Shown here: piece by piece, positions 15,944 through 18,326 of the stretch | Position numbering within the stretch: position 1 is the first letter of the stretch | Layout of the letters: every line of letters starts with the position of its first letter | Assembly (NCBI GenBank): GCA_039738635.1 | Contig: JBCLLN010000002.1 | Span: 106 to 64,105, forward strand | Direction of reading: 5' to 3' | DNA from: Candidatus Saccharimonadia bacterium | GTDB taxonomy: Bacteria > Patescibacteriota > Saccharimonadia > CAILAD01 > BJGX01 | DNA: 64,000 nt | Translations under genes and position numbers: made by a program | Notes under the pieces: model-generated | The model's input: the letters and a program-made list of their open reading frames with translations, nothing else | The model's database searches: none | What the model was told of the DNA's origin: nothing

Positions 15944-16093
15944 ATGTCCTTGCTTGGTAAAATAATAAAATCTGAGTAAGCGGATTGGTTTCTTGGCTTG
16001 CCGCTATGGCAATCCAGGACCTAATCACTTCTCAGTTTTTTACTCTCTATATATTAAATAAAATATTAAATAGAAAAGTAAAAGTCAGAGCTA

Positions 16094-16123
16094 ATTGTAT
16101 CAGATTATCACCAGGTATGTCAA
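16094..16123 (-). promoter_or_regulatory. sigma70-like promoter for the rplC operon (TTGACA-18-TACAAT)
   Basis: On the minus strand, TTGACA is at 16123-16118 and TACAAT at 16099-16094. This leaves a leader of about 140 nt before rplC. Confidence 0.5.
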
Positions 16124-16194
16124 CAATTACTTTTTAAAAGATACCCTTAAAGTAGGGGCGTCTTTTATGCTTTTAAGTTAGCTAATAATATTGC

Positions 16195-16524
16195 TTATTT
16201 AAGTAGCGTAACACCACCAATTACTGGCAATGGCTTCATTTCGTTATTGACCACATTTAGAATGCCCATAATAGCTAGCACTGTTGGGGCAAAGTAAAGT
16301 ACCCACAGCAACATGCCCACTGGAGGCACAGCCAGCGTAACGACCATGGTCACAGCCATTAAAGCTACCGCGAAGAGTATGTTTACTAGGCCTTGATTAG
16401 CATGGTACTTAATGAACTTACTATTACCACCGGCAATTATTGGCACTATTACTAATACCCCTAAGTAAGCCAATATTCCCATTAGCTTGTCATTGTCACT
16501 ATTTGCTTTCTTATCCTCTGGCAT
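16195..16524 (-). CDS. Small integral membrane protein, DUF4870-like
   Basis: 109 aa. LAYLGVLVIVPII...KYHANQGLVN followed by two more TM helices resembles the DUF4870 pattern. Motif-level recognition only. Confidence 0.5.
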   Translation of the reverse strand: MPEDKKANSDNDKLMGILAYLGVLVIVPIIAGGNSKFIKYHANQGLVNILFAVALMAVTMVVTLAVPPVGMLLWVLYFAPTVLAIMGILNVVNNEMKPLPVIGGVTLLK

Positions 16525-16613
16525 GATTAATATCTCCTCGTAAATTAAATTATTATTACTCTACTAATTATTCTAGTCGCACATAGCACAATTGGCAAGA
16601 AGCTAGAGCATAA

Positions 16614-18257
16614 CTAAATATTAATAGTTTCCCCACCTAGCTTAGCTCGGAAGTAATTATCATGGCTAACATACAATATTGCGCCACTATAACCTAGCAG
16701 GGCAGTTTCTAGCTCTTCAATACTTGGCAAATCTAGGTGATTAGTGGGCTCGTCAAGGATTAGTAAATTAGGTCCGGGGGCAAGCATTTTGATAATCTGG
16801 AATCTAGCCTTCTGCCCACCAGATAGCTGGTTTAATTTTAGTCCTAAATCAGCCCGAGGATCAAAAAGATACTGCGAGGCAATTTGCATAATTTTCTCTG
16901 GATTAACAGCTAAATCATTATCAAAATAAACTGATTCGATGGCTTCTGCTAGCGTGCTATTTAATAAATCTGGGCTAATCTCTTGCTCATAATAGCCGAT
17001 GCGCAGACCCTTTTCTGGCTCAATGGACCCACTATAAACCACCGCGTCAAAGGGTTTGGCTTGGCTGACCTCTAAAATTAGCTTAATCAGGGTGGATTTG
17101 CCGGCCCCATTACGCCCGCGGATTTCTACCCTATCCCCACTATTAAGGCTAAAGGAGATCTTGCTAAAGAGTGGCTTAGTATAGCCAATACTTAGGTCAT
17201 GAATCTTTAGTAAGTTAGCAAAGCCATGTGACAGTTTATCGGTGGCAATGGCGATATTTTTGGTCTTATATTTATCATAGCGATCGGTAATCTTTTTTTC
17301 CATCCCCTCAACTGACTCCTGATCAATCCAGAATGATGGCTTTATCATAACTTTCTCTAGGTCATCAATTTGTTTTTGAAAACGACGCGCCATTGGGATA
17401 AACGGGTTGGGGGTTTTACTTGATCCGGCTTTTTTACGATTAGCTTCTTGTAATTGTTTTTTGAGGTTACTCATAGTGCTAAGCTGAACTTCATAATTAT
17501 TCATACCAGCCACTGTGGCTAGGCTGTTTTGACTTAAGTAGGCATTATAATTACCACTAAACTCAACAGCTTTGTGGTCTTTTATCTCGATGATGGTATC
17601 AACATTGGCTAGCACATCTCGATCGTGACTGACTAGCACTACTGCTCCTTTGACTGCCCCTAGCCAAGCTATAAACTCAGCCTTGGCGATATAGTCCATA
17701 TGATTGGTAGGCTCATCAATAAGGGCCAGGTCGGCCTTGCTCTCGGCAATCTTTGCGAGCTCTACAAACCGCTTTTGGCCACCAGAGAGATTTTTTAGTA
17801 ACCCCTTAGCCATAGCTTCATTTATCTGATACCCAGCTAGTGCCTGCAATACCCTATCTTCTGCTCTATAATAATCAAGATGCATAAACCTCTCTAGCGC
17901 GTCGCTATACGCATGTAGCTCGGCTTCTGTGGGGTTTATAATGCTAGGGTAGGCTTCTATGCTGTTTTTTGATAACAAATACTCTGGCAGTTCGCTTAGA
18001 ATATAACCCATAACGCTCATCTCTCCAACTTGGGTATGTTCCTGCCTACTGGTAGCTATTCTTAGGCCTTTCTTGCGCCATATTTTGCCTACAAATTCAT
18101 CATCTTGTCCATTGATTAACCCTAGCAAAGTTGTCTTGCCTACTCCATTGCGCCCAATAATTGCAACTTTTTGATTGGCCTGTAAATTTAAGCTAAGATT
18201 CTTTAATAAGAGCTTAGAACCAGCAGTTTTCTCTTCAATTTCAATACTTATTATCAT
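16614..18257 (-). CDS. ABC-F family ATPase (soluble tandem ABC, translation-factor type); start trimmed to the ATG at 18257
   Basis: It has two complete cassettes. The first has GRNGVGKTT, LSGGQKRF and LALIDEPTNHMD. The second has GRNGAGKST, LSGGQKAR and LLILDEPTNHLD. There is no TM domain, and a charged inter-domain linker is present. Confidence 0.85.
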   Translation of the reverse strand: MIISIEIEEKTAGSKLLLKNLSLNLQANQKVAIIGRNGVGKTTLLGLINGQDDEFVGKIWRKKGLRIATSRQEHTQVGEMSVMGYILSELPEYLLSKNSIEAYPSIINPTEAELHAYSDALERFMHLDYYRAEDRVLQALAGYQINEAMAKGLLKNLSGGQKRFVELAKIAESKADLALIDEPTNHMDYIAKAEFIAWLGAVKGAVVLVSHDRDVLANVDTIIEIKDHKAVEFSGNYNAYLSQNSLATVAGMNNYEVQLSTMSNLKKQLQEANRKKAGSSKTPNPFIPMARRFQKQIDDLEKVMIKPSFWIDQESVEGMEKKITDRYDKYKTKNIAIATDKLSHGFANLLKIHDLSIGYTKPLFSKISFSLNSGDRVEIRGRNGAGKSTLIKLILEVSQAKPFDAVVYSGSIEPEKGLRIGYYEQEISPDLLNSTLAEAIESVYFDNDLAVNPEKIMQIASQYLFDPRADLGLKLNQLSGGQKARFQIIKMLAPGPNLLILDEPTNHLDLPSIEELETALLGYSGAILYVSHDNYFRAKLGGETINI

Positions 18258-18263
18258 AATATT

Positions 18264-18269
18264 ATTATA
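18264..18269 (-). promoter_or_regulatory. -10 box TATAAT placed 6 nt upstream of the ABC-F ATG (leaderless-type)
   Basis: The minus strand reads cggTATAATaatattATG. Confidence 0.5.
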
Positions 18270-18282
18270 CCGAGCTCCATCC

Positions 18283-18302
18283 AAAAACCCCTGCTAGAGG
18301 GG
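18283..18302 (-). terminator. Intrinsic terminator after rpsJ
   Basis: The minus strand reads aaCCCCTctagcAGGGGttTTTTgg, located 25 nt after the rpsJ stop. Confidence 0.55.
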
Positions 18303-18326
18303 TTAGAGTATAATGAGGTAGGATTT

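Follow-up and report, generated by a model that had tools for sequence, protein, structure and literature searches.

The 64,000-nucleotide stretch analyzed here (hereafter the window; contig JBCLLN010000002.1 of Candidatus Saccharimonadia bacterium) carries the str-S10 supercluster, in which rpsJ (S10) and rplC (L3) are separated by the genes of an ABC-F ATPase and a small DUF4870-type membrane protein. We found that the separation of rpsJ from rplC is a class-wide operon boundary in Saccharibacteria, regardless of the presence of ABC-F, and that a permissive cargo slot, of which the content depends on the lineage, lies between the terminator of rpsJ and the promoter of rplC. In our view, the most valuable content of the locus is a conserved RNA leader preceding rplC. 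Altogether, we regard it as likely that the locus represents a modular supercluster, with a cargo slot holding a resident ABC-F and with a leader of rplC that may respond to a ribosomal protein (r-protein). This type of organization is known, and the locus represents a variant of it specific to the lineage.

Genes between rpsJ and rplC in the window

On the minus strand of the window, the order is tuf, rpsJ, a terminator, the ABC-F gene, the DUF4870-type membrane protein gene, a promoter, and rplC. The tuf gene (EF-Tu; 18673-19857; 81-93% identical to those of relatives in tblastn) is preceded by fusA (19980-22094) and leads the tuf-rpsJ unit, in which rpsJ (18327-18647; Pfam PF00338, E-value of 4e-36) follows after 25 nt. 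On the other side, rplC (15302-15943; PF00297) heads the rplC-rplD-rplW-rplB... operon, where rplD (14637-15302) is followed by rplW, rplB, rpsS, and rplV. The fusA, tuf, and rplD genes were taken from the list of open reading frames (ORFs). The rpsJ-to-rplC distance is 2,383 bp (15944-18326), and the separation of the two genes by an ABC-F and a membrane protein, described in the first-pass annotation of this DNA, was confirmed.

The two intervening genes were assigned as follows. The ABC-F ORF (16614-18257, ATG start; 547 aa) was identified by Pfam, motifs, and fold. An alternative TTG start at 18284 would yield a protein of 556 aa; an exact-sequence look-up of the 547-aa form returned no match, and the database carries the 556-aa TTG-start form. 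The second ORF (16195-16524, from the ORF list) encodes a protein of 109 aa with three transmembrane segments. This protein scored only 14.5 bits (E-value of 0.037) against PF09685 (DUF4870), of which the gathering score is 25 bits, while its syntenic orthologs reached the family (25.2 bits in L007 and precomputed matches in L081-L084, L157, and L158; L and P numbers denote the loci compared in this study). The DUF4870-like identity proposed earlier is supported through the orthologs.

The contig was derived from a metagenome, and an apparent frameshift in rpoC (see below) indicates that the sequence contains errors, so that a chimeric contig joining unrelated DNA between rpsJ and rplC had to be considered. 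Nevertheless, different studies produced over 10 independent assemblies with the same rpsJ-ABC-F-DUF4870-rplC order, and the G+C content of the region (0.38-0.43) is only slightly lower than that of the surroundings (0.42-0.48). We therefore regard an assembly artefact as practically out of the question.

The rpsJ-rplC boundary across Saccharibacteria

We collected rplC loci through L3 homologs (60-77% identity) and a DNA-pattern scan of metagenomes. The latter gave 67 matches, among which 13 with L3 directly downstream were accepted as real and the other 54 were discarded (approximately 60 matches were expected by chance from a hand estimate). In all of the 19 loci with rpsJ, as well as in L157, rplC starts 650-6,248 nt past rpsJ, while the spacing between tuf and rpsJ is 9-50 nt in every locus showing both genes. 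The 12 other Saccharibacteria loci, in which both rpsJ and rplC are visible but ABC-F is missing, constantly keep the two genes apart, with a terminator of rpsJ itself and the conserved rplC promoter. No case of rpsJ directly joined to rplC was found among the Saccharibacteria loci examined. Because rpsJ and rplC are apart in every locus with or without ABC-F, the latter is not the cause of the split. In the first-pass annotation, the junction was considered to be broken by ABC-F, and a lineage-specific occupant was thereby taken for the cause. Two observations in relatives had been named there as counterevidence in combination, namely ABC-F encoded elsewhere and the ordinary adjacency of rpsJ and rplC; we found the former in 73 of the 80 genome loci surveyed (see below) but the latter in no relative.

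The gene most commonly found in the slot is of the DUF4870 type (13 of the 19 loci), and it is always located directly upstream of the rplC promoter. This gene is the sole occupant in L081, L082, L083, and L147, and accompanies a 658-aa repeat protein in L117. The slot of L084 houses NUDIX, HAD, and CYTH genes and others, and that of L145 contains YbjQ-, DinB-, and ASCH-like ORFs, which were recognized by eye from the translations and not by a scan against a family library. Opposite-strand ORFs with no function assigned occupy the slots of L086 and L088, and small unannotated ORFs those of L085 and L087. The 658-aa protein of L117, a close relative (8653-10629, minus strand), bears tandem repeats of approximately 20 aa at its C-terminus (QLIDNGQGEAVAENLDKFKGL...).

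The detachment of S10 from L3 has precedents outside Saccharibacteria. In cyanobacteria as well, a tuf-S10 unit is detached from L3. Archaea typically have S10 in a unit with tuf/EF-1a and away from L3 (PMC10833476), and plastid genomes keep S10 with tuf, apart from L3 (PMC6330054). The description of the rpsJ-rplC junction as near-universal was therefore too strong. In the archaeal and plastid/cyanobacterial layouts, ...S12-S7-(EF-G)-EF-Tu/EF-1a-S10 stands apart from L3-L4-L23-L2. As in these layouts, S10 closes the tuf unit and is not joined to L3 in every Saccharibacteria locus examined. On the other hand, the two units of Saccharibacteria remain neighbors on the same strand, 0.65-6 kb apart with the cargo slot in between, and their boundary is marked by a dedicated terminator and a promoter-leader pair. 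As for insertions, two reports describe multigene insertions that part otherwise contiguous operons in Gammaproteobacteria and Bacilli, the operons themselves being intact (PMC6735719, PMC8046335). Saccharibacteria resemble these bacteria in that the operons are intact while inserted genes separate them, but the boundary is at tuf|rpsJ in Gammaproteobacteria and Bacilli and is shifted to rpsG|fusA and rpsJ|rplC in Saccharibacteria.

We propose that the classical str-S10 supercluster of Saccharibacteria has been cut into the modules rpoBC-rpsL-rpsG, fusA, tuf-rpsJ, and rplC-rplD-rplW-rplB.... As in Archaea and plastids, tuf would have captured rpsJ, in a unit presumably closing at an intrinsic terminator. 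The r-protein operon would restart at rplC, with a promoter that is strong and conserved, followed by a hairpin leader of approximately 65 nt and a U-tract. For annotation, this means that the "S10 operon" of Saccharibacteria starts at rplC and that rpsJ is to be counted with the tuf unit. Natural cargo slots are found in the gaps between the modules, and position alone gives no ground for calling the genes in them ribosome-linked.

Transcription signals between tuf and rplC

A promoter-like TTTACA-17-TATAAT (19940..19968; 11 of 12 positions) lies in front of tuf within the 122-nt fusA-tuf spacer. Behind rpsJ, we located an intrinsic terminator with a 7-bp stem and a 5-nt loop (AACCCCT-CTAGC-AGGGGTT followed by a T-run; 18283..18304). 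A hairpin with a T-run was found at the equivalent place in all of the 19 loci carrying rpsJ, albeit the stem sequences differ between lineages. The rplC promoter, TTGACA-18-(TG)ATACAAT with a TG-extended -10 element (16094..16123; 11 of 12 positions), is also conserved: TTGACA-N3-CTGG-...-ATCTGATACAAT was found in 16 of the 16 loci inspected. Both signals had been reported in the first-pass annotation and were recovered in this study. The transcript of rplC would have its 5' end approximately 7 nt past the TGATACAAT box, and a short leader transcript of approximately 150 nt ending at the U-tract is predicted.

The conservation around the rplC promoter extends beyond the -35 and -10 elements. 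The spacer (CTGG...ATCTGA; 16086-16123 on the minus strand of the window and the equivalents in L001-L088) and a TGACTTT-like box approximately 8-12 nt past the -10 element (the window and L001-L088) are conserved as well. These elements may serve as a discriminator or an initial-transcribed signal, as a site for a factor, or in an alternative pairing with the leader stem (3' strand).

The gene of the membrane protein would be expressed separately, with a promoter, a Shine-Dalgarno sequence, and a terminator of its own. The promoter scan detected TTGCCA-17-TAGAAT (16570..16598), which is followed by a GGAG Shine-Dalgarno sequence. In L001-L006, the promoter is kept as TTGCCA/TTGCAA-17-TACAAT and the Shine-Dalgarno sequence is kept as well. 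A weak terminator-like hairpin with a T-run lies behind the gene (16136..16158), and relatives have stronger GC hairpins at the equivalent place.

For the ABC-F gene, a TATAAT box (18264..18269) is located 6 nt ahead of the ATG with neither a -35 element nor a Shine-Dalgarno sequence, and was not among the sites reported by the promoter scan of the window. The corresponding spacing between a -10-like box and the ATG is 4, 9, and 9 nt in L001, L002, and L007, respectively. A leaderless start of ABC-F is plausible from the sequence in this genome only, and transcription by read-through from rpsJ may be the alternative. In either case, ABC-F would be transcribed on its own, namely from a near-leaderless start with the -10 element alone or through read-through of the terminator. 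Of the leaderless-type promoter proposed earlier for both ABC-F and the membrane protein, the TATAAT box in front of the ATG stands, while the -35 element is missing, the spacing is not conserved, and the membrane protein gene has a promoter of its own. We found nothing in favor of co-transcription of ABC-F with the r-protein genes. The conservation of the terminator behind rpsJ, as well as the presence of separate promoters for the membrane protein gene and rplC, argues against it, and co-regulation in this sense, as had been suggested, is disfavored.

A conserved leader RNA upstream of rplC

The 5' untranslated region (UTR) of rplC possesses a core shared by all of the 16 loci first inspected, CUGAG-AAGYG-...-AGGUC-(variable hairpin)-GAAACC-...-YUUACUCAG-UUUUAUUAUUU. 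In the window, the conserved part comprises a single 21-bp hairpin and a U-rich tract (15959..16036, minus strand; 71.3 bits and an E-value of 3.7e-14 against the covariance model described below), and is preceded by a variable 5' hairpin predicted by folding (16039..16083), which is optional and missing in some lineages. The 150-nt leader of the window folds to -35.1 kcal/mol (z = -3.66).

We aligned 26 distinct leader sequences (alignment A1) and built a covariance model (R1) for searches. The alignment supported a single long hairpin of 21 pairs, with 85.6% of the cells paired against 26-46% in slid controls. Compensatory changes were found in 12 pairs, and none of 500 shuffles attained the observed scores. 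After realignment to the model, 89.7% of the cells were paired and the covariation score was 0.332, compared with 0.072 or less in the controls. R1 matched each rplC locus exactly once (29 of 29) and nothing else in 1.14 Mb. The model also matched L157 and L158 (E-values of 3.5e-12 and 7.4e-10, respectively), neither of which was used in training or pattern selection. Altogether, the hairpin leader (approximately 65 nt) and the U-tract precede rplC in 31 of the 31 rplC loci, including L086 and L088, in which the upstream gene lies on the other strand. This 5' UTR of an r-protein operon is structured and conserved, and covariation supports the structure.

In a search of the whole window with Rfam 15 at the gathering score, tRNA alone was detected, and a search of 15800-18700 at E-values up to 10 gave only meaningless matches to miRNAs and sRNAs, none corresponding to the rplC leader. 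We found no paper linking ribosomal leaders with Saccharibacteria/TM7. With neither an Rfam match nor a published description found, this conserved leader is the newest item of the locus, and it represents a well-supported cis-element in a phylum with almost no gene regulation known.

The invariant GGUC/G-AA-ACC segment forms an AA-bulged helix, and the sequence of the P1 stem is invariant or nearly so, while the flanking pairs covary freely. Protein-binding sites typically show such a pattern of an invariant core amid freely covarying pairs. The closest comparison is offered by the S10 leader of E. coli, an L4-interacting RNA with L4/NusA-dependent attenuation, which is confined to Gammaproteobacteria (PMC3616713). 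The two share a structured 5' leader before an L3-L4-L23-L2... operon, with a hairpin and then a U-rich tract just before the first cistron, and both have variable upstream hairpins that are apparently dispensable (PMC3616713). In contrast, the saccharibacterial leader precedes rplC instead of rpsJ, comprises one long hairpin instead of five, and bears no similarity to the E. coli leader in sequence or in Rfam; its regulatory role is putative. We detected no E. coli-type L4-interacting leader before rpsJ in the window, where rpsJ is preceded by the 25-nt spacer after tuf with no Rfam match.

By analogy to E. coli, the leader would attenuate transcription of the rplC operon in response to an r-protein. 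We lean slightly toward this reading of the leader as an r-protein-responsive transcription attenuator, and L4 is the leading candidate ligand, albeit unproven. The main alternative is that the leader is not a sensor, being a constitutive 5' stem-loop that stabilizes the mRNA or serves as a processing site, or a terminator of the upstream unit left as a fossil. The single hairpin with a U-tract, the putative status of the ligand, the lack of an established antiterminator fold, and the lack of a mimic in E. coli rRNA (in an unfiltered R1 search of the E. coli rrnB operon, only spacer/terminator DNA was matched, with E-values of 0.27 or greater) are consistent with this alternative. Nevertheless, the element lies downstream of the conserved rplC promoter, ahead of which there is a separate terminator, and is kept in L086 and L088 despite the opposite orientation of the upstream gene. 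The near-invariance of the GGUC/G-AA-ACC core and P1 next to freely covarying pairs also speaks against this alternative. We consider a non-sensor leader possible but the less probable of the two. Separately, AGGUC-N29-GAUACC found by a regular expression, and thus in sequence only, at 1722-1761 of E. coli 23S rRNA (L156) is probably at chance level, as AGGUC occurs four times in 23S rRNA.

The rplC leader provides a concrete, testable handle on r-protein feedback in ultrasmall epibionts, for which cultivable strains and genetics exist (PMC10633639).

Distribution of ABC-F genes in relatives

We surveyed the placement of ABC-F in 80 species-representative genome loci plus metagenome loci. Among the former, ABC-F resides between rpsJ and rplC only in L001-L007, of which the ABC-F sequences are 67-80% identical to that of the window, and is found elsewhere in the remaining 73. 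The slot-resident ABC-F was additionally found in the metagenome loci L132, L133, and L144, and in L157, the P0023 locus, and L158 (64-66% identical), while all of the ABC-F sequences with 55% or less identity to the window protein lie outside the rpsJ|rplC slot. A second slot in the supercluster is the rpsG|fusA gap: the order rpoC-rpsL-rpsG-...-ABC-F-...-fusA was found in L013, L023, and L028, and ABC-F lies 110 bp upstream of fusA in L086. In other lineages, ABC-F often neighbors translation genes recognized by eye from the translations; 24 loci have an SmpB-like ORF there, and 10 have S15/PNPase-like ORFs. In approximately 66 of the 80 ABC-F loci, there is no ribosomal gene within 6 kb.

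In rough neighbor-joining trees, the loci with the slot-resident ABC-F fell into two related clades and were interleaved with those of which the slot lacks ABC-F. In these two clades, ABC-F is a resident of the slot. Its history there may be explained by ancestral residence with repeated loss or by repeated gain, and both fit the trees. We dropped a single recent insertion of ABC-F, as the ABC-F sequences of 64-66% identity are also in the slot and the trees interleave with empty slots.

Several points weigh against a modular supercluster with neutral cargo and an r-protein-responsive leader. The boundaries of the units, as well as their promoters and terminators, were predicted from sequence, and the transcription units were inferred from these. 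The TATAAT box of ABC-F, a possible promoter, has no -35 element and its position is not conserved. The scan of E. coli rRNA yielded no mimic of the leader. The trees were built from two or three proteins each (L3+L4+L2 and tuf+S10). Finally, ABC-F occupies two different slots of the supercluster, with the slot copies interleaved with empties, and could represent selected co-localization rather than neutral cargo.

Under this last alternative, an essential ABC-F would be kept in the supercluster for a shared neighborhood, dosage, or growth-rate control without being part of an operon, which is a looser version of the co-regulation suggested in the first-pass annotation. The same-strand residence of ABC-F in two inter-module gaps, namely rpsJ|rplC in the clades of the window and rpsG|fusA in L013, L023, L028, and L086, agrees with such selection, as do the translation-gene neighbors elsewhere (the SmpB-like and S15/PNPase-like ORFs above) and the report that a saccharibacterial "EttA" is required for growth (PMC11665869). 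Against these stand the approximately 66 of 80 loci with no ribosomal gene nearby, the slots of close relatives that are empty or filled with unrelated cargo, the terminator and separate promoters that insulate ABC-F, and the small number of independent events (approximately two or three). We regard selected co-localization as unlikely. Of the proposed link between ABC-F and ribosome synthesis, a weak recurrent association with the supercluster through the two slots stands, and co-regulation beyond that is unsupported.

A more inclusive scenario combines both subjects. The leader might be a Saccharibacteria-specific attenuator responding to an r-protein, most likely L4, that arose after the capture of rpsJ and independently of the gammaproteobacterial S10 leader, and the residence of ABC-F (sole and essential) in the gaps might have been selected for expression with the ribosome in minimal-genome epibionts. 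We put this combination forward only tentatively, as it is probably not correct in all of its parts.

Identity of the ABC-F protein

The window protein bears PF00005 (ABC_tran) twice and lacks a transmembrane domain. In both ABC domains, Walker A, the signature (LSGGQ), Walker B-Glu, and the H-loop are complete, and these motifs do not vary across 41 homologs. The P-site tRNA interaction motif (PtIM) linker, PF12848, scored 17.8 bits against a cutoff of 25.9 bits, and many homologs carry precomputed PF12848 matches. Its closest relatives are found in Candidatus Saccharibacteria and other metagenome-assembled genomes (MAGs) of Patescibacteria.

The protein scored below the cutoff of every NCBIfam subfamily of EttA, Uup, YbiT, YheS, and antibiotic resistance (ARE) proteins: 212 bits for EttA (cutoffs of 599 in PRK11819 and 807 in TIGR03719), 214 for Uup (900), 211 for YbiT (762), 189 for YheS (917), and 139-233 for the specific ARE families (Vga, Lsa, Msr, Sal, OptrA, and producer; 680-1450). 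The best model was the generic "ribosomal protection-like ABC-F" (NF000355; 336 bits against a cutoff of 380). The sequence matches in PDB were all weak, with VmlR2 at 194 bits, YheS at 172, YbiT and Uup at 163, and EttA at 159.

An AlphaFold (AF2) model from the 41-sequence alignment had a mean predicted local distance difference test score (pLDDT) of 86.4 and a predicted template modeling (TM) score of 0.80. In this model, a helical arm is inserted in the first nucleotide-binding domain (NBD1; residues 93-141 or so), a helical-hairpin linker connects the two domains (237-278 and 286-303), a flexible segment of low confidence spans 331-347, and the chain ends right after NBD2 with no C-terminal domain. 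The tip of the linker is conserved (K275, K276, A277, P283, N284, P285, and F286). In Foldseek comparisons with ribosome-bound structures, TM scores were 0.77 for PoxtA, 0.75-0.77 for YbiT, 0.72-0.75 for EttA, 0.74 for YheS, and 0.73 for Uup, at approximately 24-25% identity each. The protein is collinear with the EttA model through the linker (residues 9-316 against 14-325), and approximately 30 extra residues come after the linker, in the low-confidence segment, and not at its tip.

EttA, YbiT, Uup, YheS, and PoxtA/VmlR2 share with the window protein the two ABC domains without a membrane domain, the catalytic Glu in both Walker B motifs, and, in the AF2 model, the NBD1 arm and the helical-hairpin linker, and the predicted structure superposes on their ribosome-bound forms. 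The window protein differs from all of these in its low identity (approximately 24-25% to any) and in falling below each subfamily hidden Markov model cutoff, and from Uup and YheS in lacking their C-terminal extension. A linker tip conserved on its own terms (K-K-A...P-N-P-F) and the flexible segment of approximately 30 residues before NBD2 also set it apart from the known ABC-F proteins. Judging from its fold and motifs, we infer that the protein is an ATP-driven factor of the ribosomal E-site that repositions the P-site tRNA. In the classification of Murina et al. (PMC6723617), it would fall into "YdiF", a catch-all group.

The first-pass annotation offered ribosome protection as a possible role, and the top matches in NCBIfam (the generic model at 336 bits), PDB (VmlR2), and Foldseek (PoxtA) could be taken to suggest an ARE-type protein acquired to displace antibiotics bound at the peptidyl transferase center or exit tunnel. 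Nevertheless, the generic score is below its cutoff and those of the specific ARE families are far below theirs, the identity is uniformly low to all solved ABC-F structures, and YbiT, EttA, YheS, and Uup gave nearly equal TM scores (0.72-0.77 overall). The collinearity with the EttA model through the linker implies no ARE-style extension of the tip. Furthermore, the orthologs are spread throughout Saccharibacteria and in other Patescibacteria, implying vertical inheritance. We thus rejected the ARE classification, and acquisition for antibiotic protection is highly improbable. Judging from these sequence comparisons, the protein is a housekeeping, vertically inherited protein of Saccharibacteria.

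A recent perspective states that "EttA" was required in transposon sequencing (Tn-seq) of Southlakia epibionticum (PMC11665869); the main text of the Cell 2023 Tn-seq paper does not mention EttA, and we found no paper joining ABC-F with Saccharibacteria. The Southlakia "EttA" is likely orthologous to the window protein. The latter defines a Patescibacteria-wide ABC-F lineage outside the characterized subfamilies, a member of which, if this orthology holds, has been reported to be essential.

Other gaps and features of the supercluster

The rpsG|fusA junction of the window is also interrupted (22383-24436, plus strand) by two opposite-strand genes, which encode a 193-aa HAD/nucleotidase-like and a 456-aa aldehyde-dehydrogenase-like protein; rpsG itself is at 24437-24913 on the minus strand. 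The distance between rpsG and fusA is 70-390 nt in L001, L005, L081, and L087, and other lineages hold ABC-F there. The fusA-tuf spacer is another variable inter-module gap. In several lineages, it contains one or two small unannotated ORFs of 82-156 aa (L083 3786-4532, L086 4116-4586, L088 3876-4340, and L157 3866-4192), while that of the window is the 122-nt spacer described above. In L086 (9412-14633), the r-protein operon ends after rplB and is followed by inverted holB-like, rluD-like, TrkA, rpsI-rplM, and rplQ-rpoA-rpsD genes, so that the S10/spc/alpha cluster has apparently undergone a large rearrangement in this lineage.

The rpoC gene of the window appears to be divided into two ORFs of 229 aa (28487-29176) and 1039 aa (25384-28503), which overlap at AAAAATTTGGGG (28487-28503, minus strand). 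Relatives have one undivided rpoC of 1258-1263 aa, and the split probably arose through a frameshift or an error in sequencing of the MAG. The L22 protein (rplV; 12761-13222, minus strand) is of 153 aa with a C-terminal tail of approximately 40 residues rich in Lys, Thr, and Pro, and L22 in the related loci is of 120-148 aa. In positions 1-2000 of the window, the G+C content falls to 0.32-0.33, against approximately 0.44 in the remaining part.

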